Assembly (NCBI GenBank): GCA_003990765.1
Contig: RBNJ01000138.1
Span: forward strand, 1-39,591
Direction: 5' to 3'
Origin: Jimgerdemannia flammicorona
Lineage: Eukaryota
Length of the DNA: 39,591 nucleotides
This document shows positions 1,950 to 32,222 of this stretch, piece by piece. Position numbers and translations under genes: made by a program. The notes beneath the pieces are model-generated. The model was given only the letters and a program-made list of their open reading frames with translations. It did not search any database and was not told the DNA's origin. Positions within the stretch are counted from its first letter, which is position 1. Every line of letters starts with the position of its first letter.

Positions 1950-3200
1950 TCTTCAATTGGTGATCTGGAGATTATATCAGCAACAATATTTTCCTTACTA
2001 GGGTGATACTGGATTTTATAGTCAAAGTTGGTGAGAACTTTCATCTATCTGGCTTACTTTCAGAAAAGGGTAGCCTGGGTCTTGATGTTGACTAATGACT
2101 TGTGGTCAGTCAATATGATGAAGTGTGCTCCTTTTAGGTATAGTCACCATTTGATCAGAGTATCTACAATAGCTAACATTTCTTTCTCATAAGTTATATA
2201 GTTAATTTCAGTATCATTGAACTTGTAAGAGTGATAGACCACAGGGTGTCCTTCTTGCATGAGCACTGCTCCAAGAGCTAGATCAGAGGTATCAGTCATA
2301 ACTTTATATAGTAGGGCAGAATTTACTGCTTGAAGTACTGGAGTAGTTATCAAAGCATCCTTTAGTACTTGAAAGGTGGTATCTTATTCAGGTCTCTAAT
2401 TTATAAGATTGTTGAAGTCTTTTTCTTATTTTATAGTCCAGGGCTGTTCTTCTTTCTTACTATGCTTGGTCATTTGGGTAAGGGCAGTAGTAATCTTAAC
2501 AAAGTTGGCAACAAATTACCTATAATAGTTTGCTAATTCTAGGAATGACTAGAGGTCTTCCAGCTTTTTGGGTCTGGGCCAATTCTTGATTGTGGAGATT
2601 TTGCTGGGGTCTACTTTGATTCCATTTGGTATGACAATATGTTTAAGAAATTGAATTTTCTTCAGAAGGAATTCACATTTGCTGAGTTTTGCAAAGAGTT
2701 GGTTTTCTTGGAGTTTCAGTAGTACTAGTTCAAGGTGTTTGAGATGTTCCTCTAGAGTTTTACTGAAGACTAGTATATTGCCAATATAAATAATAATAAA
2801 TTTGTTCAGATATAGGTGCAGGATAATATTCATCAGGGTCTGGAAGGTTGTTGGGCATTAGTTAAGCCAAAGGACATAACCAGGAACTCAAAGTGTCCAT
2901 AGTGAGTTTGAAAGGCTGTCTTGTAGATGTCTTCTTCTTTCATGACAATTTGCTAGTAATCATTTCACAGGTCAAAAGTACTTATAAATTGTAGATTGGT
3001 AAGTCTATTGAATATATCATCAATTCTGAGTAGTGGACAATAGTTCTTGATGGTCTGTTCATTGAGGTCACAGTAATCAATGCACATTTACAGATCTTCT
3101 TCTTTTTTTACAATAAAGAGGACTAGTACATCAATTTCTCTTAGAAATATATGGTAGATTGACTTGAAGGCTGGCTTAACATCTGGAATAGTCTTGATGG
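1950..3200 (-). pseudogene. Reverse transcriptase and RNase H (decayed)
   Basis: [43 protein letters not shown]...LFAKLSKCEF (YLDD mutated); RNase H VMTDTSDLALGAVLMQ...NYITYEKEMLAIV. Confidence 0.93.
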
Positions 3201-3479
3201 TGTGGTCTACTACTTGTTTAGAAGATAGGCCTTTCAGGAGTTTCTTCAGGAATATATCTCAGAATTTCTAGAATAGGGGTCTAACATGGCTGTTAACTTT
3301 GGAAAAGTCTTCTTCAGAGTTCTTGAGTTCTCCTTTGGATGGGCAGATGGAGATGGCAAAGAGAGGGCATTTCTTAGCTAATTTCTTAAGCTATAGCTTA
3401 TTGATATGAGTGATCTTTGGTCCAGAGTCACTAGAGCTAAGTGGGTCCTTTTCACTTTGCAGTTTGAAGTTATGACATT

Positions 3480-3830
3480 CTTTCTTAATGGTCAGAGAAT
3501 GGTTTACCCAATTGATCATGGAGTTCTCTTGTTTCAACTATAAGGTTCTAAGGATAATTTCATTATCAGAAAGTAGTATGATTTAGAGAGTAATATATAC
3601 ATAGTAGTCACCAATTTGGAAGGATAGGTTGCAGACTTTCTTACTAATGACATAAGAGATTCTATCAGCTGTGGCAACTACTTGAGTCTGTTGTATCAGA
3701 GATATCAGAACCTTGAGTCTGTTGGCTATTTCTTTATTAATAAAGTTACCTAAGACACTACTGTCTATTATAATTTTGACAGGTGCTCAGTTGATAAAAG
3801 CTTGAAGTATAAGTAGTTTGTCTGATCCAA
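3480..3830 (-). pseudogene. Retrotransposon aspartic protease (decayed)
   Basis: Manual translation PVKIIIDSSVLGNFINKEIAN (decayed DSGA..NFI), located upstream of RT. Confidence 0.8.
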
Positions 3831-4029
3831 TAGCAGTAATTTTGGTTATAGGAGCTTTCCTTCTGTTGGTTCTTCTTTGAGCCAGTTCATTGACACAAGA
3901 GAAGCAATTGTCAATTATTCAGGAAGAGTATATTCCAATACCATGGGGGTATCAGCCACTTGGTATATATCTGTCTTTGATTTTCTTATAAAATTATTCT
4001 TCTTTATTCATGGTAGATTGAGCTGGGGC

Positions 4030-4445
4030 CTTGTTTGATGAGCCAAATCCTTTGGATCCTTGGATGGTGGGTAGTAGTTCAGAGACTTCCTTGACTGTCA
4101 GAGTTGATTCAATTTTCTCAAATAAGATCTGCATGATGCAGAAACCAATAGAGATCTTGAAGGGTGTCCAACTATGGTTTCAGATGAGAACAATAATTTC
4201 ACCTATATAATCTTTGTTAATGACTCCTCCTTCTACTGAGAGTCCTTTCAATGCTAGACTACTGTAACAGCATATTCTTCCAACATGTCCTTCAGGGATT
4301 TGAATACTGATTTCTGTATAGACTTGCTTGACTTCTTGGTTGGAAACTGTAGCTTTTTCAGCTACATATAGGTCATATTCAGCTGCTTTTTGACTTCCTT
4401 TGGTTGAGACCTTGGCAGTTTGTCTTAACTTGACAAAGTCCAGTA
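4030..4445 (-). pseudogene. dUTPase inside the retrotransposon polyprotein
   Basis: DFVKLRQTAKVSTKGSQKAAEYDLY...IQIPEGHVGRICCYSSLALKGLSVEGGVINKDYIGEIIVLI*NHS..PFKISIGFCIMQILFEKI...TIQGSKGFGSS: all five dUTPase motifs recognisable in decayed form. Confidence 0.9.
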
Positions 4446-5510
4446 TTCTAGTAGTTAGGTTATTGAGGTGGTACAGAGTAGTAACAGTTGCTCATAATGC
4501 TGTTTGGGATTTTCAGTTGAGGTAGATACTAGCTATGTGTTCTGTCTTTTGACAATAGAAGTATGCTCCACTTCTTTGAAGTTTATTCCTTTCTCCTTCA
4601 GTAAGTTTCTTGAAGGTACTCAGCTAGGTAGATTTATGATTTCTGGGTGACTATGAGGTGGGTATTGAGAGAGCTCAGGATGCTTTATGCTTAAGTTCTT
4701 CTTTCTTGGTCCAAGTCTTTTTCTTGTTGTTGAATTGTCTTCGAGGCAGAATTGGTTCAGCTATTAGAATTTGCTTAACTATAGTCTTGATTTTTACCAG
4801 GCATCATTGTTGATAATCACAATCAACTGAGTATTCTTGTTCTCAGATTTTTCTTGTAAGCCAGTTAGGTAGTACATTGAATAGATGGTCTGCTCTTGTA
4901 CCATTTTGTACTTCATCATTGGCAATATATCCTAGACCAACAGTATTCAGAAGTAACTCAAGTTTTATACAGAAGGTTTTGAATTCTTTCTTATTATATA
5001 TATTAAATTTGAGATTGCAGAGTTTTACTTGAGATTTGGTAATCATGGTTTTGCTGTGATATTGAGCAATCATAAGTTGTTTCAGTCCAGGGACTGCAGA
5101 ATAGGCTCTATATCCTGGGGCATTGTTTGCTGCATTCTGAGTAATTACTACAGGTTGGGTATCACATATGAGAGGTTTTTCAGAAAGAGTTCACCACTAT
5201 TCTTCAGCAGATCCTTGGAAGAATGTAACAACTTAACAGATATAGGCTGTTGTAGTAGCAAAGAGTTGTTCCAGAGTGTGGTCTTAATTGTTTGTCAGGA
5301 GGCAGTCAGCAACTTACTCATTGGTCTATTGATTGGCTTCAAAGTTAGTGTCAACTATACTAATAAAGCTTTGGACTTCTTGTGCAGTACCATTGAAGGT
5401 AGGTAGGCTCAGATTTTTAGTAAATTGGGTCTATTCAGCTAAGGCAGTAATGGTTGCTGTCATTATTACTACCTGGGCTATAAGGTCTAGAATCTGTTAG
5501 TTTGCCATAT
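4446..5510 (-). pseudogene. gag with degenerate CCHC zinc knuckle
   Basis: Knuckle GAYFYCQKTEHIASIY near 4520-4570 (decayed CX2CX4HX4C). N-terminal LPTFNGTAQEVQSFI near 5400 resembles a retrotransposon gag start. The coding-like region may extend upstream to ~6530. Confidence 0.65.
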
Positions 5511-9428: not shown

Positions 9429-11997
9429 AAGAATCATGCGATAAACTCCATCAAACTGGAGATCCATCACATATGCTCTTCCTAAGAAACCTAATAATAC
9501 ATCTGTTGTCAGCAGTAATAATATCATTCATTTGTCAATAGAGTTTTGAAAAGATCCAAACTACTTACCAACTATATGCAGACCACAGATGACAAGATTC
9601 AGTACACCATCTTCGGTTGACTTATCTATAGCATTTTTCATTACTTTACCAAGACTGACTAGATCCTGTTTAACCAATCTGATCTTTGCATTGAGTGGTT
9701 TTACCTTACCGACTAGCAGTTCAATATGCTTTTGGTCATGTGCTGTCCTGATAATAAAATCTGGCTTCATACCTCAGAGGGCTGGATCAAATCTCTTTTT
9801 CATCATTGATGATGATGTAGATGTGCTATTCGCCCTTTTGAATTAATAGAACAGTATTTATATCCCATTAGTACTATTATATAATATGGAGAATATTCTA
9901 TACCTACCATTCAAATATAGTTCTCCTGTTCTTAAAGAATGGTCCCAATACCGGAGCAATAATGGAGTGAATATGAGTGTCTTCGATATTATGGCTTTGT
10001 GTAAATGATGGCCGCTCATTGTTGACCCTTATATATCATGAGCAGTTTGAGAAAATAATATATTGTTTTTAAGCAAATATCATTATATATCTTGGTATAC
10101 ATATAGGTTTTGAATGATCTCTCTCATCAATTTACTGTTGTTTGTAGTTTGCAAGCTTTGAAGGTAGTTGTGTATAGCAGCCTTTTGCCTAGGATAATTT
10201 GGATTCTTACATGCAATCTAACAAATCATTATTAAACTAGAACAGGTATATATATGCTAAGGATAGATATGTTATATACATCCACCTTGATGGTATTGGC
10301 AAACATCTGAATGATATCATCTGAGATAAATATATATGGGTACATTTTTCGAAATTCAATGAACAAAGTACCCCAGAGCTCATCATCAAAATATCCATCT
10401 AGATCATATGGATTCTCTTCTTGGAAAACAAATACATGGCTTAAGACTCTGTAAAGACATTAAGTAGCTGTATTATTAAATATTCGTCATAATCTGATAT
10501 TGTAAAACAATAATACAGATAACACACAGTTCTTCAAGAGCTGTCAAGTAAGCCTGTATAGTCTCACACTTCTTGATGATTGCCATTCAATATTCACGGC
10601 ATTTACTAGAGATGTCATTTTTTCCTATCATCCACTGATTCAAAAGATAGATGACAATATAAACATATATGCTGGCATATTATAACATATGGTGCAAAAT
10701 AATATTCATTTACCCGAGAGAGATAATCATCCAGGTTCCATTCAATAATTCCAGGACCAATGAAATAGTCCATACAACTATCATTGCTTGCCTTGGAGAC
10801 AGTTGCATCACTATAAGGTGAAGAGAGGATGTAGGATGAATCGGTCACTACTGTATTTGGGCTGTCTGGAATCATATAGTCGACTCTTAATGGTCTTTTT
10901 CTTAGCACTATGGCTGGAGAATCTTTCTAATAGATATATACAGCTATTAATATCTAGACCTCTTTTTATAAATCTGAATAGTAATAAACTTACATTATCT
11001 TGTCTAGGAATGACTGGATAGTCAGATATATCATCGTACTCTTGATAGTGAATACCTGATATTTTGGAGGAAAAAGATATAACACCATTTGTTAAATGGG
11101 CTATTGGCTGGAAGGACCAATACAGCTATGAATAGGCACATCTTTTATTTACTACCCAGCCATCATCAAATCTGCCCCATTTTTACTTATGCCCTAGCAT
11201 AGCTTTACATGCCACCATCACACCAACAACCAATAATTATTTATGCAAATCCACCTCTTTATATGTCATATGTAGTGAATTGATTTTGCTATGAGAAATG
11301 AGCAGAGCTCTTCTACCTGTATCTTCAGCACCCCTTGAACATTTTGATGGCGATGATATAGCTGATATCATATGACCTATTTGAACCAAATATAATAAAT
11401 TCATATATATTTATAATACCTATGAGATAATTACATATTTTCAAATATACATACTTGGAGTTGGTATTGTTTCTCGTAGTACTCGCTTTGACATATATGG
11501 TCTGATGGATGGGGGTGGTGGGATATCGAGGTCTGAATGCCAAATAAACATCTGTTAGATAGGTATATATCGAAATAAACAAATATTACAGCAAATAACA
11601 TACACTGAAATAGTGGTGGTGTGACATCTGGCAGAGCTCGTTTGCTGGCATGAGGGCATTCAACAATGATATGGATGTGTCCATCATCAAGAGGTTCAGA
11701 AAAATACTTCTGGACCTTATGGGCTACTGGCAGATTAACTCCTTTTAACACAGTATCAATAGTAGCCATTGGATCAGCTTTGAGTGCGGTCAATAGAACA
11801 TTGGGGTTATCAAGTGGAATGTCAACCATCCATAGTTCGAGGTTTTTGGCTGTAATATGATCAAGTTCCGGTGAACATTTTTCTTTGATGAGGTCCTTCA
11901 GTGTACCGAAACTTTTAGTCTTCCTAATCTCCATAGGAAAGTTTTGGTGTAATGGGCTGGAATCACCGTAGATAAGATAGTTGAGAGTGATGGACAT
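9429..11997 (-). pseudogene. Crinkler (CRN) effector-like gene with C-terminal PD-(D/E)xK (REase-like) domain, multi-exon, 3' truncated
   Basis: N-terminus MSITLNYLIYGD...LKDLIKEK...LELWMVDIP...HIHIIVECP (CRN LxLxxx and HVLVxxP motifs). Downstream exons give KPDFIIR...ELLVGKVK and VMDLQFDGVYRMIL; GT-AG introns. Confidence 0.8.
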
Positions 11998-12984
11998 ATT
12001 GAATGCTGTATAAATGATCTGGTGAGATAATAGTACTAGTAGCAGTGGGTCCAAGATGCAGTATTTACTTACAGTTAGGCAGGCACACTATTATAGGTAG
12101 AGTAAGAGGGAAAACAATGCATGTTACACTTTTAATCAGACAGTAGATCCGAGATACTGGTAAACCTATGTCACACATCAGCTGCTTACCAATATAATGC
12201 CTATTTGGGTGCTGGCGCAGCATACATCCCTTAATCTATCATACTTTTCCAAAGAATCTTACCATCAGGCAATTTGTCCGCCTTTGTGCGGGGAATTGTT
12301 TTATCACCATCAAATGAATTATCTAATATGTCTGATGCCACAATCTTAATCATAATCATGTTTTCTACAAAATATATGCCATGTCTGGAATGAGACATAT
12401 GTTGTGTATAAGATCCTTAGTATATATACTGGCCAACAAAGGGAATCCCCACATCCTTAACACTACAATTGATCATGCAAGGCCTCTTTGCAAAAAGGTA
12501 TCAAGTCTACATTTAGGTGCCAATATTTTTTATATCCATCTTCAAATATGGCTATAAGAAATATCGATGCTTAATTCTGGGCTAAACATTTAAAACCCCC
12601 AACATGACCAGTACCCTCTGTACAAGTCTCTGAGAATATAATTTACTATATGTATAGACCCATATTCAAATAAAGTGCAGTTGCAGCATACTTTATACCA
12701 AAATTTACAATCTGGCTACTGAAGACAAATAACATCACAAATCTATTTGCAAAAATCTCAAATTCCACATTTCCACTCCTTACTGAAATCCTATAATATA
12801 TAACATACTATCAAACTATAGATATAATGTCAATCTAACTATAGTATAACTTTTGTCAGTATTGCCTTTTGCAATAGACAATTCACCACAGTCAGACTTT
12901 TTCAAGGATCCTGCTAGACTACTAGTTATATGCAAACTGGCTCTAGTAGAGCAACCATTTTTACATGTCATTACAGCCAGATCC

Positions 12985-15333: not shown

Positions 15334-16383
15334 TTATTCTTTGACTATGGTTGCAAGTGACTTATCAACCTCTTCAAAGAATTCCTTAATCAGTCTAGCT
15401 ATCCTCTGTCGAAAGCCTAATTGTGGCTTCACTGTAATAAAATGAATATCTACAAGCTTGTATGGCATAATCCCTACATGTCTATAACTGCCCAAACTAT
15501 GCCATAGAGGATACCGTATAGTTGTACCATCCCAAAGACTAATGCTGGCCAGAGATGTAGTATAGGTCCTTTCTCTCTCACTTATCACAGCCAATACAAA
15601 ATCTATAGACTTATTTTCTACAGCACCAAAGTCTACCAAGGGGCTATTGTGTTGGTCAGCCTTCTTAAAAACATTCAGTATTCCCCATGCTCTAGGCCAT
15701 GCTGTCTGTATTGCTGCACTATTGTGATTGTGAAATGATGTATTGTACCCAGATATATTATCAAGATTGTCCACCTTACACAGCCGGAAAACTGCATCAA
15801 TAAAGATACATTGCTGCATAAGCCCTTCAGTAGCAACCAGTCCACCCCATATCTGTGGCTCGTACTTTCGGGGGACTGCACCATCTGGTTCACGTGTTAT
15901 AGGGCACTTGATCTCAAAGAGATTACATTCAGCAGAGACTCTAGCCTGTCGGCCATTTTGCATAGCTGTTGTCCACAAAGCATCATTGGCAGTATGCCAC
16001 ACCACGCCAATGTCATTGGGCAAGTATCTGAAATGATCCACATCTGGAATTTTCACTATGCAGATCTCACGACAGTATATCCAGCACCCCAGTCATAGCT
16101 CAGCAAATGCAATGGCGACTGACTCGAATGCTGTCCCAAATCCACAGGCTGCACTACTGAATGGCTTGCCCCAACCAAGCAGTCTTTCCACAAAGTTCTC
16201 TATGAATTTGATGGGAGTACAGTATCGGTTGTTCAAACCCCACATAGTTCCAAGGTCTGAACCACCGACGGTGGTATTTAGAAGCTTATACCATCTTGGA
16301 TTGTGCTGTTTGATGGCACTGTGTTGGTGCTGAAACTCTTCGACCGATCTCACCAGCTCTTTTATATCTGTGATGGCTGACAT
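15334..16383 (-). pseudogene. YqaJ/lambda-type exonuclease, Asfarviridae D345L-like (349 codons, one internal stop)
   Basis: ORFs 16093-16383 and 15334-16056 are in the same frame, joined across TGA at 16095-16093. Motifs Q...RW....TTVGGSDL, AACGFGTAFE, YLPND (decayed SPDG), EIKCP..R...VP..Y.PQI..GL, AVFRLC, PRAWGI, VDFG. Intronless. Confidence 0.88.
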
Positions 16384-16522
16384 ATTGTCTAAGATAATAC
16401 CAAAGGAGTTGTGGGATACCTTTATAGTGATTGAAGATGAACCTAATATGTCAGGATGGTGTCTGAGTTATGGTATCTACAATTGTCACTGATATAATCA
16501 TATATTCTATATCTACAATATC

Positions 16523-18878: not shown

Positions 18879-19180
18879 TTGTATTAGTATAGTTAATAGT
18901 ATATAAGAGCAAATGCACTTTTTGCTCAAAACCCTACTAAGTGACTTCGATATTTTTGCCCAGCCAATGAGCTGTCATTTAGCGTATCCTTTTTATTGAA
19001 AGGGATATGCTAAATGTGATTTCATTGGTCCAAAAAATATCAGGTGTCACCAATGAGCTATCATCTGGCATAATGCTAAATGTGGTTTCATTGGCCGGAC
19101 AAAATATTCGAAGTCACTTAGGAGGTTTTTGAGCAAAAAGTATGTTTGCTCCTATATACTATTAACTATACTAATAACAA
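18879..19180. repeat. ~300-bp nested inverted repeat (~92-bp arms)
   Basis: Arm 18879-18970 (TTGTATTAGTATAGTTAATAGTATATAAGAGCAAA...AAGTGACTTCGA...CCAATGA) pairs with 19088-19180 with few mismatches. Inner hairpin CATTTAGCGTATCCTTT / AAAGGGATATGCTAAATG. Sub-repeats CCAATGAGCTrTCAT and TGCTAAATGTGrTTTCATTGG each occur twice. Confidence 0.92.
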
Positions 19181-19299
19181 AGTATTCTCTTTGATCATTG
19201 TAGGATTGTCAGATAAATATTCTATATTTGTTAAATCCCAATATATATAAAGCAGCTCCCCAACCATACCTGCTTTCATTTTATTCAAAAAATATTACG

Positions 19300-20957
19300 A
19301 TGCCTGATGATTATAACCCTGATGATTTTAAAATCTCTTGCATTCCAGCTGCAACCATAGGCAAGCTTGACCGATTTTTACTAGAGCAAAGATATGGCAA
19401 CAATCTGAGTATGGAGCAGAATAATGTATTATATGCTGTAGTAGACAATGGTCAGAATGTGTTCTGTACAGGCTCTGCAGATAAATATAGTTCTTGTCTG
19501 AGTTTGTTTGCAATCATAGTATACAAAGCTGATATATCCTTTATCAGGGACAGGGAAAACATGGCTACTCCTGCGAATGATTGCCCTTCTCTGCAAGAAG
19601 CATGGCAAAGAGAAAGTTGCTATAACTGCAACAACTGGTATCGCAGCCTCGCATATCAATGGTCAAATGATTCACAGCTTTGCAGGGATTAGCAATGGTG
19701 CAAAAAGTATAGGAGAGCTTACATCCAATATTATGAAAAATGCTACAGTGCAAGATTGATGGAAGACTGCTGTAGTGCTTATTATTGATGAGATATCAAT
19801 GTTGAGTTGTGAGCTATTTGAAAAGCTCGAGAAAATTGTGTGAAATGTTCATGGAGGAGATGTACCATAGGGTGGTCTCAAAATTATCATTATGGGTAAT
19901 TTCTATCAACTCCCCCCTGTTGTGGTTGAACAAGACACCAGAGGAATATATACTTTCCAGGCTACATCATGGACAGCATCCATTCACCTGACATTTGTTC
20001 TCAAAGAGGTGTACAGACAAAAGGATCCTGGTATGTATATATTTTCATTGGCCGTTCTAGTATTTCTTGAGTCTCTTTTATTAATGACTATCTTCATAGG
20101 CTTTATCCAGATATTAAATGAATTGCATGTTGGCCAAGTGACCAAAAAAACAGGGGATATAATGAGGTCTTTGAAACATCTGCTAGCCCTTCCTGACCAA
20201 AGGATCATTCCAGTATCACTGTAGGCATTTCGTTTCTTATGGTCCTCCTTTTGAATCCATCTGGGATTTGGACCCTTTCCTTAATGGAACTTGCTTTTGT
20301 CTAGCTTCCCAACCCATAAGAAGATGCAAGAAGCAAATTGTCATCAGCTCCAAAAGTTGACGGGCGAAGCCCATCGCTATTTTGCAATTGACAGTGGAGA
20401 TATGACAATGGTTGGGAAGCTGTGTTTGTTTCCTCAGACCTTAGACATAAAGGTGGGTGCACAGGTGATCTTGCTGAAAAACATGACAGAAAAACTGGTA
20501 AATGGCAGTGCAGGAATCATCAAGAGTTTTGTCAAGGACCAGGGTGAGAGCATATCATATCCTAGCATACATTTTGATAATAGAATGATACAAACAATCT
20601 GGCCAGAAGCATGGGAAAATGAAGACAGACGTATGTAGAATTTGCCTTTCGTCATTTGGTTTATTTTACAACTCTCTGACTGATAACCTACTCTCAAACA
20701 CATTAGATGGACTAATCCTGGCCAGGCATATGCAGCTGCCACTAGATCTGGCATGGGCATTGTCAATACACAAATCACAGGGAATGACCATTGAATATGT
20801 TGTAATTGATTGTACGCAGATATTTGCAGCCAGGCAGTTGTATGTGGGTGTATCTCATGCAAAGTCTCCCAATGAGTTGCAGATACTGAACTTCAGTTGT
20901 GTGAAATATATTGTGGATACTGCTGTCACAGCCTTCTATGAAGGTCTAAACAGCTGA
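19300..20957 (+). pseudogene. PIF1: PIF1-family 5'-3' DNA helicase (4 introns, premature stops)
   Basis: NVFCTGSA|GTGKT (Walker A split by intron 19481-19547, donor mutated GT>AT), TATTGIAASHINGQMIHSFAGI, LIIDEISML, GNFYQLPPV, LKEVYRQKD, KVGAQVILLKN..LVNGS, QLPLDLAWALSIHKSQGMTI, QLYVGVSH; stops at 19757, 19841, 19868. Confidence 0.95.
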
Positions 20958-20963
20958 TGTGGT

Positions 20964-22469
20964 TTATTTATCAGCTTTAAAGTATACCTCATAAATTCTT
21001 GCACTTATCCCCGCCATAACCTTTGGTCCCATTGCACTGTATATCATCATCTGTTGTTTGTCATCACTATTTAAAATGCTATATGCTGCAAACAGATTGC
21101 TGAGTGTATGGTAATATGCAGCTATCTTCTGTGCCTTGGCAAATGAAACTCCATGTACAGTTGCGAGCATTGCTGTAAAGACATGCTGAAGTGTGGCAGC
21201 ATTGGACTTATTGTTCAGTGTGCAATATGCCTGATAGATAATGAAGTATGGTGTTGTGAGATGTTTCTGGAGTGTAAGATATGTGGCTTGGTCGATGTAT
21301 TTGTCTGAGATGCCATCCAGTTGCTGGGTTTCCATTTTCTTCAGCTCATTGTGCAGTGTGGTAAGATAGGTAATAGTGTGATCAGTGCTGGATGTACACT
21401 TGACGAAGAAGCCATCTCTGGTCTGTATGGTGGAGATTGCCGATGTGATTGCCTGTGGATTGAATGCATCGACCACCACAGAATCATATTCCTCAATGAT
21501 ATACACAACCCGGTCTGCACCAGAGCACCTCAGCTGTGCCTTCTGCTCTGCAAAGCATCCATCCTTCATACTGGCCACCAGATCATCCATGTGCTTCCAT
21601 TCAATGATCCAGTTCAGCACCAGTTCCATCTTGTCACTATGCCGACGTGCGATCCACACAATGTCTCCAAGCTCCAGTGCATGCACCTCCACCTTGACAT
21701 GATGTTTCTGCAATTGTGTATAGATATAGTTGTGGTTGGCAATGGACCTGATCTTGTGGGAATCGAGGATGAGCACCATATCAAATGTGCCAGGGTAGAA
21801 TATAGTGGGTGTGATGGACGGGAATGATGGCCTGCCTTCCTCTCCTACTACCTCTGTCTTTTCCGCTGCTTGGGGCTGTCTGGTCAGGTGCTGTACCAGC
21901 AGTGCTCCAGCATCTGTCAGAAAATACTTGGCTGGATTGCTGTTTTTGATAACCAATCCTTTTGTCACCAGACTACTCAGTCCTGACAATGCAGCTCTAT
22001 CACAGTATAGCTGTGCAAGGGTTTCGAGCTCCTTCTTGGCAATGTGGACATCAGCAGCATGCAGAGCCACAAGAATAGCATATGGACTACTGCGTAGCCT
22101 GGGAGTGTAGGAATGGGGTATGCTACTAGCAGCAGGTAAAATGGAGGTACATTTGTTGTGATCCAAGAGCCATTTAGTCAGCTTGCTGACTATCTGTAGA
22201 CCAATACCATTCAGATGGCATGTATCTTGTAGTGATGTGAAGGGAGAGGGATGGTGTAGAATGACATTGTGGACCTGTAGAGCTTGAAGAATATCAGTAT
22301 TAAAGATTATGTTTAAAATATTACATTTTGCAGTATGTATATTGACCTTTTGATATAAATAGTATGCCTTAGATCCAGTGGCCTGTGCTTTGTGTATGTG
22401 CTCTGCAAGACATGCCAGATAGAGTGGGTTTGCACAGGACACATGGGTTGATTTTGGTATTGGTGGCAT
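20964..22469 (-). CDS. MUS81: MUS81 crossover-junction endonuclease (catalytic motif decayed; likely non-functional)
   Basis: CANPLY...HhH LNGIG; winged helix YTPRLRSSPYAILVAL; ERCC4 LILDSHK, LELGDIVW, IIEWKHMDDLVASMKDGCFAEQKAQL (ERK..DL..S..DGRF.EQK.RL with Arg>Trp/His/Cys/Gln); C-terminal HhH GVSFAKAQKI. In-frame 72-nt intron at 22275-22346. Confidence 0.95.
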   Translation of the reverse strand: MPPIPKSTHVSCANPLYLACLAEHIHKAQATGSKAYYLYQKVNIHTAKCNILNIIFNTDILQALQVHNVILHHPSPFTSLQDTCHLNGIGLQIVSKLTKWLLDHNKCTSILPAASSIPHSYTPRLRSSPYAILVALHAADVHIAKKELETLAQLYCDRAALSGLSSLVTKGLVIKNSNPAKYFLTDAGALLVQHLTRQPQAAEKTEVVGEEGRPSFPSITPTIFYPGTFDMVLILDSHKIRSIANHNYIYTQLQKHHVKVEVHALELGDIVWIARRHSDKMELVLNWIIEWKHMDDLVASMKDGCFAEQKAQLRCSGADRVVYIIEEYDSVVVDAFNPQAITSAISTIQTRDGFFVKCTSSTDHTITYLTTLHNELKKMETQQLDGISDKYIDQATYLTLQKHLTTPYFIIYQAYCTLNNKSNAATLQHVFTAMLATVHGVSFAKAQKIAAYYHTLSNLFAAYSILNSDDKQQMMIYSAMGPKVMAGISARIYEVYFKADK

Positions 22470-22503
22470 ACTGATTATTGCACAAGAGTCTGGCCACCAT
22501 GAC

Positions 22504-23148: not shown

Positions 23149-23559
23149 CTATTTATTTATATATGGCATCTCACCACAGATGCGGCGGGCAAGAACCATA
23201 TCCTTTGGTACAAGTGTAACACGTTTGGCATGAATTGTAGCCAGGTAAGAATCTTCAAAAAGCTCGATAATATATGTCTCCGCTGCCTCCTGCAATGCAC
23301 CGAGAGCTGGTTTCTGGACACGAAACTCCATCCTGGCATCCTCTAGTATCTCACGGACCAAGCGCATAAAGGGAGCCTTTCTTATGAGCAGTTCTGTAGA
23401 TCTTTGGTATTTTTGGATCTCCTGAAGGGCCACTGTCCCAGGACGATAACGATGGGGCTTCTTGATTCCACCTCCTATAGGGACCGTTTTGCATGGAGCT
23501 GAGACTGTTTTGCGAGGTATCTTCATATGCTTCTGGGGGTTGGGTTGCTTTTGATGCAT
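23149..23559 (-). CDS. Divergent histone H3 variant, intronless
   Basis: [39 protein letters not shown]...[40 protein letters not shown]; first ATG at 23559; rewritten N-terminal tail. Confidence 0.95.
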
Positions 23560-26161: not shown

Positions 26162-27402
26162 ATGACTCCCATCTCAAAACTCATACTCCTGTTTACATAT
26201 ATGCTTGCTGTAGTCAGCTATGTCAGCAAGAGTATGTCAACCATATCTATGGAGGATAAATACAAGCACGCATTAAGTATGTGGTTTGAAAATAGCATTG
26301 TTTAGATTCAGCACCCACAAAACAGCACTCTTACATATACTGTAAATTACAGATACTCTTCGTCAATATGAGGAGTAGGGAGGCTGCTTCAAGCAGACCA
26401 TGGATGCCATGGGGCCTGATTGTGATATGGTTCTGACAGATGAGGATATTCGCAACAGATGTTAGTGTCTTGTGTTTGTTTCATTTTGCATAATGATGTA
26501 TACCTATATATTAATTATATATGGGAATCCTGTAGATGGTATTGCTCTGGTAGTATGCGATGCTACAACATTGAAGATGTCAATTCCCAGACAGTGCCTA
26601 GGCAAGGGTATCGATACTGATACCTATCTGAAGTACATGGGCAAAAATGCAGTATTGGCTCTAATGTTCGTACACCATAAAACAAACTCGCATTCTGTCT
26701 GCTGGTTCCATAGACAGATGGATCACAAGAAATATAAAAGCTGTATCGCAACATCTGCTCAGTGATCTGATAATATCAACAGATCAGCTGGCTGAAAAGC
26801 AACAAGATGTCATGGATGGACTAGAGGTTGCAAAAAAGGGGGTTGCTCAGCTAACAACTATAACTACCAGTGCATTGAGTGGCATAGGTGTGCAGGTAGA
26901 TGAGTATATCCACAAGGTAGATGATGCTCTCAATAAGACAATTGCAGCAGTTGCCAATGCCAGTGATATTACTGTTGCTCTTATTGAACAGCACTATGCG
27001 GCTTTCATTAAATCGGCAAGTGGATGGATTCCTGGATGGGCCACGGGGGCCATTGTAATACTTCAGACAATCACAGGCCTGAGCTTGGCAGCAGTAATGG
27101 TCCTGCTGGTAGTTGTAGCCATTGTAGCAGGTATCATCTGGAGCTTTGAACTAAACAGGTGCTGGAAGCTGAATGTTGTTGTAATTGGCCTAGTGGTTTA
27201 TTACTGTATGTATAATGTTCAGAGAATCCTGGTGTATCTGCAATGATAATATCACTGGCTGAGTATATTGCTCTACATCATCTTACTCTGTATATATATT
27301 GGGCTTTGTATTTCAACTCTGATGCTGGGCTATCATTCAATGCCAGCAAGCCAAAACAAATGTCAGTTCCCACCCAGGCCAGAGTATTATAATCGGGAAT
27401 AA
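26162..27402 (+). pseudogene. KAR5: KAR5/Tht1/GEX1/Brambleberry-like nuclear membrane fusion protein
   Basis: Signal-like MTPISKLILLFTYMLAVVSYVS; introns 26277-26352 and 26461-26535. Spliced Cys-rich domain LRQYEE*GGCFKQTMDAMGPDCDMVLTDEDIRNRYGIALVVCDATTLKMSIPRQCLGKGIDTDTYLKYMG...SVCWFHR. Frameshift ~26730, helical/coiled region, then three hydrophobic TM segments to TAA at 27400. Confidence 0.78.
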
Positions 27403-27542
27403 ATTTGGCTGGTGTATTTTATATAATAAATCCATTTTATTTCGAGATTACAAAGACTAATCTGATGAGACAGCTACTGGGTATTTGCTATTTAAACCTG
27501 CCCATTTAAAATGACAGCTTGCAATAATTTCACTTCAAAAGA

Positions 27543-30963: not shown

Positions 30964-31140
30964 ATTTGATCGGTGCTGTACCGTGGCCTAATGTAGTATG
31001 CAATAAATCAGTGTAATCCTATTTCTAAAACTCAAAAAAAAATTTAAGTTGCCAAATAGTATTCTTTTGATATAGTAGCTAACTAGGATTGTACCAATAT
31101 TATAAATACCAGTCTGCACAGCATTAGATTGTTATTTAAA

Positions 31141-31995
31141 ATGCCATGGAATCTCTACAAAGGTGTACCATCATTTGCCTATGGCTGTTTGATTGCAGAA
31201 GAGCACTGTTTGGCATATGATAGTGATAGTGATAGTGATATAGGCACTACTGCTACCCTTGATACATCTCCGCAATATACTGATACTGAGCAAGAGGAAC
31301 AGTCACCAGTCAGCAATCATATACCAGTAATATCAGATTGGTATATATATATTATCGGTGTCATAGCACTCTGTGCTATTACTGCACTCTATGCAGGGAT
31401 GGTTGTGGATCATCCATCACAATATTCTGCATCTGGGGTTGCCGATAGAAGACATATAAGATTGAATGGGCACACCTCTAGTATAACAGAGTCGCCTAAC
31501 TTTGCACTCTATACAGGAGAAGCAAGTATTATCCATCAGTATATCTCGCCAACATACTTCCCACCACTGTATACTCTCCATCGGGCATTGAAAGGCGATA
31601 TCCATATTCACCCTCCCGAGATAGCCATTATGCCATCTATACATGTAGGCGAGTGCTGGCCAATGGCAGATAGCCAGGGACAGATTGCTATATCTCTGAT
31701 CCAGCCTATAACAGTGACTAGCATAGCTATTGAGCATGCCAGCCAATACAAAGCCATCATGCTCTCAAGTGCTCTGCGTGATATGGAGCTATAGAGCCAG
31801 CCTACAAATGCAAATTGTACAGCAAAGATATATGAATCAGTTTTTATTGAATCCTTCACTTACAATATACTGGGTGAACCGATCCAGAAAATTGTCATCC
31901 TGCCAATGGTGAATATAAAGGCTATTCTTCTATGAATCAATAGTAACTGGGGTCATGAACATTATACCTATATATACAAATTAAGTATATACTGA
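31141..31995 (+). pseudogene. SUN-domain (Sad1/UNC-84, Mps3-like) nuclear envelope protein
   Basis: Acidic N-terminus, one TM (WYIYIIGVIALCAITALYAGMVV), then PNFALYTGEASII..ISPTY..PPEIAI..VGECWPM..SQGQIAI..IEH..SSALRDMEL*..FTYNILG..INSNWGHEHYTYIYK; stops at 31792 and 31933. Confidence 0.92.
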
Positions 31996-32222
31996 TATAA
32001 TATGGACTAGTCTTAATCATTGTCTATAATTTTCCACACTTCTGTGAATACCAATATCCTATAATATATAATATGCTATCAGACTACTATATATATAAAT
32101 ATGCTGAAAAATGATTCATACTTTTTGCCCTCATTTCTGTCCAACCTCTGATCTAATATGTCCAGTCTGCATGACCTTGACTTGTTTATAAGAGTGGCAA
32201 TGGCAATTACTGAACTTCAAAA

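Follow-up and report, generated by a model that had tools for sequence, protein, structure and literature searches.

A decayed spliced gene, tentatively Kar5/GEX1-like, in a probably silenced block of nuclear-function paralogs of an Endogonales fungus

The DNA analysed here is a 39.6-kb stretch of Jimgerdemannia flammicorona (39,591 nucleotides, contig RBNJ01000138.1, hereafter the window), and its forward strand holds, at 26162-27249, what is left of a spliced gene whose product, a membrane protein, would have been ~275-300 residues long. From its N-terminus on, this ancestral protein would have had a signal peptide to be cleaved off, a lumenal domain bearing the cysteines and a helical stalk of ~100 residues, and it would have ended in two or three hydrophobic helices. 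This is the domain order of Kar5/Tht1/GEX1/Brambleberry and, together with cysteines near the positions of those in yeast Kar5, it would point to a very divergent Kar5/GEX1-like gene. The explanation we prefer, tentatively and at just short of an even chance, is a decayed Kar5/GEX1-like gene, very divergent and short, that sits in a silenced block of an Endogonales genome among paralogs with nuclear functions. Homology to Kar5/GEX1 as such is plausible, a little under one half in our estimate, and no formal family membership is claimed. The copy in the window is inactivated by a nonsense TAG and, depending on how the exon 3/exon 4 junction is read, by a frame break or by the lack of the last two family cysteines, and the full protein cannot be made from it. 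The gene model consists of the following parts:

26162..26276, + strand: exon 1 (38 codons and one further base), with the start codon and an N-terminus resembling a signal peptide
26277..26352, + strand: intron 1, 76 nt, GTATGT..CAG, GC 0.34
26353..26460, + strand: exon 2, TLRQYEE-stop-GGCFKQTMDAMGPDC DMVLTDEDIRNR, bearing Cys1 and Cys2 (C-x11-C)
26461..26535, + strand: intron 2, 75 nt, GTTAGT..TAG, GC 0.28
26536..26607, + strand: exon 3 core, YGIALVVCDATTLKMSIPRQCLGK, bearing Cys3 and Cys4
26608..26782, + strand: ambiguous exon 3/exon 4 junction, either an intron or frame-0 read-on plus a frame change
26783..27243, + strand: exon 4 body, soluble helices over ~100 residues and, after them, hydrophobic helices at 27043-27156 and 27160-27219
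27244..27249, + strand: tandem stop TGA TAA, where the reading frame probably ends
27250..27402, + strand: same-frame hydrophobic ORF of 50 codons, the third transmembrane helix (TM) of the sequence-only reading, probably 3' UTR

The ATG at 26162 stands immediately 3' of an in-frame stop and opens MTPISKLILLFTYMLAVVSYVSKS, the N-terminus of the gene, which is signal-peptide-like as judged from hydrophobic 19-mers over residues 1-25 rather than by a dedicated predictor. The GC content of the exons (0.38-0.47) lies above that of intron 1 (0.34) and intron 2 (0.28), and a codon-usage log-odds score, for which nine other ORFs of the window served as training set, gives every exon a positive value in its proper frame (between +0.15 and +0.34 bit/codon; +0.19 for exon 1 and +0.34 for exon 4). 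The 3' half is covered by a 193-codon ORF (26665-27246), in which a helical part of ~100 residues precedes hydrophobic helices. Its length is far beyond chance: the window holds nine ORFs of at least 193 aa, whereas 100 Markov simulations gave 0.01 on average. An AlphaFold2 model of the 175-residue piece at 26719-27243 is all helix at low confidence (mean pLDDT 55), with soluble helices at residues 2-15, 21-53, 60-80 and 86-101 and hydrophobic helices at 103-119, 123-144 and 149-174, all of them before the tandem stop. In one-line form, exon 2 reads TLRQYEE-stop-GGCFKQTMDAMGPDCDMVLTDEDIRNR, and the motifs of the translation run from C..C through DEDIRNRYGIALVVC and DATTLKMSIPRQC to a later CWFHR. 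The cysteine motif quoted in an earlier, sequence-only reading of this DNA is thus present, with the correction that its first spacing, given there as C-x10-C, is in fact C-x11-C. The cysteines of the spliced protein fall at residues 50, 62, 82 and 95, to which a model that reads on in frame 0 adds Tyr105 and Cys130.

Of the three TMs counted in the sequence-only reading, the hydrophobic stretches at 27043-27156 (38 aa) and 27160-27219 stand, and the third candidate, at 27250-27333, lies past the tandem stop. Because the tandem TGA-TAA is upstream of it, its codon score is neutral (+0.04 bit/codon) and an AATAAA follows at 27399-27404, overlapping the end of the 27250..27402 ORF, we regard 27250-27402 as probably 3' UTR and not as a coding third TM.

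The same reading had proposed a hidden gene that becomes visible after splicing of two introns and read-through of stops. Its ATG, signal-peptide-like start, two introns and helical ORF are all found here; splicing and read-through do not suffice to give the protein described, because CWFHR (SVCWFHR, with the last family Cys) lies in frame 0 and the helical part in frame 1. Three options present themselves at the exon 3/exon 4 junction. An intron at 26608-26713 (106 nt) or one at 26633-26717 (85 nt) preserves the frame at the cost of all but four cysteines. A continuation in frame 0 reaches Tyr105, at the position of Cys5, and Cys130, in CWFHR, and needs a frame change, for which the sole bridging GT..AG would be 40 nt long (26743-26782), implausibly short for an intron. 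Codon usage is coding-like in frame 0 over 26607-26663 (+0.36 bit/codon) and neutral in both frames over 26664-26742. The proposed C>Y replacement at the fifth Cys holds only in the read-on model with its frame change, and with the correction that the Tyr lies 10 residues past Cys4.

Relatives of the gene were sought with a full HMMER search of 1.84 billion representatives (E<=0.001), using the 136-residue read-through of exons 2-3 as query. It returned two matches, P0002 (143 aa, E 1.7e-4) and P0003 (67 aa, E 9.1e-4), which are unnamed metagenomic fragments independent of each other. Both match exon 2 alone, the only part of the gene with detectable relatives, with 14 invariant columns that include both Cys, and the start of exon 2 just past intron 1 ([A/N]TL..YE) is conserved in both. 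At the column of the in-frame TAG nonsense codon (26376-26378, + strand, codon 47), P0002 has S and P0003 has K. Because both fragments share exon 2 and are intact at the TAG, a small family exists relative to which the window copy is broken, and within this alignment the TAG is a real break. An alternative intron 1 (26300-26378, GTTTAG..TAG) would skip the TAG in frame; it was rejected because it deletes TLRQYEE, which is conserved in both relatives.

Named relatives did not emerge from any of the searches. Annotated Kar5, GEX1 and Brambleberry proteins were absent from the HMMER matches at this threshold, and no annotated fungal protein matched the Cys domain in the same search. The C-terminal 227 residues had no relatives in a word-based search at near or longer lengths, the C-terminal piece had no match in IMG/VR or in prokaryotic genome contigs, a PDB sequence search gave chance-level rows only, and the ESM Atlas offered no usable lead. 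A check against the Pfam Tht1 model, suggested by the sequence-only reading, also came out negative: none of 10 queries (exon pieces, the exons 2-3 read-through, P0002 and P0003; the gene being represented by exons singly or with intron 2 read through) matched PF04163 at E<=10. We take PF04163 to be a fungal model, of uncertain sensitivity for GEX1-type members.

The case for kinship consequently turns on layout and cysteines. In the available parts of PMC4291462, the Kar5 family is described as having a signal peptide, a Cys-rich domain, one or two coiled coils and, at the C-terminus, two or three TMs, with sequence conservation confined to the Cys-rich domain and six cysteines of this N-terminal domain conserved in every orthologue; in yeast Kar5 these are C56, C68, C91, C105, C116 and C141, and TM2 ends at residue 504. 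With Kar5/Tht1 (PF04163) the window gene shares an N-terminal signal peptide, a C-x11-C Cys domain starting from about residue 50, later cysteines at similar distances, a helical lumenal region and terminal hydrophobic helices. It differs in the missing PF04163 match, in having at most five of the six family cysteines, in its length of ~275-300 residues compared to a yeast protein whose TM2 alone ends at 504 (PMC4291462, as far as available), in its one short helical region and in being broken. The likeness to GEX1 (plants, Chlamydomonas, Plasmodium) and Brambleberry (zebrafish) extends to the general layout, and DEDIRNRYGIALVVC may resemble the GEX1 Cys-rich-domain motif R.R[YF][AG]..L..C; the Cys-rich domain was reportedly defined by Ning et al. 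2013. Three C-terminal TMs are predicted for GEX1 orthologues according to the available parts of PMC7586128, in agreement with the three hydrophobic helices that the low-confidence AlphaFold2 model places before the tandem stop, and GEX1/Brambleberry proteins vary widely in size (same source). The Kar5/GEX1 architecture proposed from the sequence survives in domain order, with Cys positions that resemble those of yeast Kar5, and lacks a Tht1 match, a reading with all six cysteines and a named relative. Among the literature matches listed, none linked Kar5 to viral elements or to Mucoromycota.

The closest competitor is that the window holds an unrelated lineage-specific gene for a secreted or membrane protein, now a pseudogene, whose Kar5 likeness is convergence or chance; we hold this to be possible, though on balance doubtful. 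Its proponents could point out that no profile, sequence or structure links the gene to any named family, that type I-like membrane proteins generically have such a layout, and that the two frame-preserving splice models have four cysteines, short of the six of the family, with even the read-on model filling five of the six positions and Tyr105 standing in place of Cys5. They could add that the four-Cys spacing pattern is common by chance, with 12 occurrences in the six-frame translation of the window versus a shuffle mean of 6 under the tolerances chosen. Spacing alone is weak evidence, because the pattern recurs in the window and in shuffles and was judged after the fact. Chance would, however, have to account for the absolute Cys positions as well as all five spacings, which track yeast Kar5 (12/20/13/10/25 here, in the read-on model with Tyr105 included, versus 12/23/14/11/25, a comparison made post hoc): C-x11-C is exact, and the distance from the Tyr to Cys6 is 25 residues as in yeast. 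The Cys domain is moreover the sole conserved part in the relatives, as the available parts of PMC4291462 state for Kar5, and a SUN-domain gene, whose product would belong to the nuclear-envelope lumen, lies 4 kb away.

Should kinship with Kar5 be true, the gene would stand for a Mucoromycota branch of the nuclear-fusion family that is both very short and divergent, and of which only the window and two metagenomic fragments are known to date. Intact relatives would act in the nuclear-envelope lumen, bringing together or fusing nuclear membranes. For the broken copy in the window, the present-day role in nuclear fusion or viral egress that the sequence-only reading had envisaged is unsupported.

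The surroundings of the gene were characterized by a Pfam scan of 26 ORFs of at least 120 aa (15 with a match) and 66 shorter ORFs (seven with a match). The main features are:

2147-4491, - strand: retrotransposon remnants with reverse transcriptase, RNase H and, at 4183-4491, a dUTPase domain (Pfam)
11434-12087, - strand: ORF with a Crinkler effector N-terminal domain (Pfam 9.8e-18)
15334-16467, - strand: two adjacent ORFs (252 and 124 aa) without Pfam match, beside an RPA-like gene
18882-19176: inverted repeat between the RPA-like gene and PIF1, arms of 102 nt, 84% complementary, 91 nt apart
19204-20957, + strand: PIF1-like helicase pseudogene (Pfam) with stops and frame changes
20967-22502, - strand: MUS81, intact 512-codon ORF
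23152-23559, - strand: H3-like histone with a normal histone fold (Pfam 1.9e-36)
31141-32000 (ORF 31087-31794 and beyond), + strand: minimal SUN-domain gene with a short N-terminus, one TM, a short linker and a Sad1/UNC domain
36101-36565, - strand: EME1, 14 kb from MUS81, so that both subunits of the MUS81-EME1 nuclease are in the window

Further Pfam matches in the window are two RPA-like genes, a dUTPase, an ankyrin-repeat ORF, an F-box gene, a dsRNA-binding gene and a NIF phosphatase. The block holds divergent or decaying paralogs of nuclear genes, namely MUS81, EME1, RPA-like, PIF1, dUTPase, H3-like histone and SUN-domain genes. With 50% of the query covered, the window MUS81 shares 86% identity with a partial Jimgerdemannia flammicorona protein encoded on a contig of 1.7 kb, and it is 42% identical to the 817-aa canonical MUS81 of Jimgerdemannia flammicorona; judged by these identities, it is a divergent second copy, and the window belongs in or near Endogonales, to a Jimgerdemannia-like genome. 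The tail of the H3-like histone is, we believe, unlike that of canonical H3, and the gene may encode a centromeric H3 or an element-borne variant. The SUN-domain gene, the second candidate for a nuclear-envelope lumen gene, is broken by a TGA that stands in frame at 31933, immediately ahead of the SNWG motif; it also carries a Tyr at the position of a presumably conserved Cys. In the PIF1 pseudogene, stops fall in conserved helicase motifs (TGA at 19757 and 19841, TAG at 19868); at both TGA sites we would expect Arg, which fits CGA-to-TGA deamination. A reading of this helicase as part of a Helitron was considered and rejected, since PIF1 starts just before the Walker A motif and no Rep domain lies upstream.

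CpG dinucleotides are strongly depleted, with an observed/expected ratio of 0.20-0.32 over 9-39 kb and 0.00-0.02 over the retrotransposon part at 1-9 kb, and TpG and CpA are in excess (1.2-1.6) across the window. Read within the window alone, this depletion suggests the footprint of long-term cytosine methylation, and the surrounding block is probably methylation-silenced.

The co-location of both MUS81-EME1 subunits, replication/repair paralogs and two candidate lumen genes is unusual, and it is the reason for keeping a bolder element reading alive. The block may descend from a mobile or viral element and not from a duplication that has decayed. In the sequence-only reading, the gene was a karyogamy factor on a virus-like element, intact copies of which would fuse nuclei or remodel the nuclear envelope for spread of the element, a proposal that we consider unlikely. 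It draws on MUS81 and EME1 occurring in one block that also has RPA-like genes, PIF1, a dUTPase, the H3-like histone, the dsRNA-binding gene and the NIF phosphatase, on the pair of candidate lumen genes, on MUS81 being a divergent second copy, and on a CpG depletion that fits a silenced foreign or repeated block. It has to contend with the unproven Kar5 identity, with a copy that cannot encode the full protein and with the gene content: capsid, packaging ATPase/terminase, DNA polymerase, primase and element-type integrase were found in none of the 92 ORFs of the 39.6 kb (Pfam, with 20 ORFs rescanned at E<=1). No relatives on viral contigs were confirmed in IMG/VR, including with MUS81, the 252-aa ORF and the C-terminal piece as queries (a search that detects close relatives only), and no element ends were seen within the window. 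The block resembles the giant endogenous viral elements of fungi (a 1.5-Mb region of Rhizophagus, PMC10640383; Mycodnaviridae, PMC13533422) in being a large foreign-looking DNA-metabolism block in an early-diverging fungus and differs from them, as described in the available parts of these two papers, in that the window has no Nucleocytoviricota hallmark gene; the same parts make no mention of histone, MUS81, Endogonales or Jimgerdemannia. Identity as an integrated large DNA virus (Nucleocytoviricota/Mirusviricota) is unsupported inside the 39.6-kb window.

In its most explicit form, the element reading would take the block at 11-39 kb as a silenced, decaying copy of a large nucleus-resident viral or plasmid-like DNA element of Endogonales, with a recombination/replication set of its own (MUS81-EME1, RPA, PIF1, nuclease, dUTPase and H3-like histone) and a SUN-domain/Kar5-like lumen pair. 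Intact copies of the element would use this pair to promote the fusion or bridging of neighbouring nuclei in a coenocytic hypha and thereby spread from nucleus to nucleus. We rate this scenario as improbable. Under our preferred reading of a decayed Kar5/GEX1-like gene, the SUN-domain neighbour and the duplicated nuclear-maintenance genes would nevertheless raise the question of a selfish element that once manipulated the nuclear envelope of coenocytic fungi.

That the gene is instead the host's own functional KAR5 orthologue (or its single conserved KAR5 locus), with the TAG and the frame problem due to assembly errors or an unusual splice, is very unlikely: the layout fits and the alternative intron 1 would skip the TAG, but that intron removes TLRQYEE, which is coding-conserved in both relatives, the neighbouring PIF1 and SUN genes also have in-frame stops in conserved motifs, the Cys domain matches no annotated fungal protein in the HMMER search, and a broken copy that shares a silenced block with pseudogenes, other decaying genes and a divergent second MUS81 cannot be called a working host locus.

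A few minor observations concern other parts of the window. By eye, an integrase-like stretch is seen at 1323-1685, close to the retrotransposon remnants. Within the two adjacent ORFs at 15334-16467, a PD-(D/E)XK-like EIKCP motif, likewise seen by eye, suggests a nuclease of the YqaJ or lambda-exonuclease type; an AlphaFold2 model of the larger ORF (15337-16092) was unusable (pLDDT 29). Lastly, an F-box, read by eye, lies just upstream of the ankyrin-repeat ORF.
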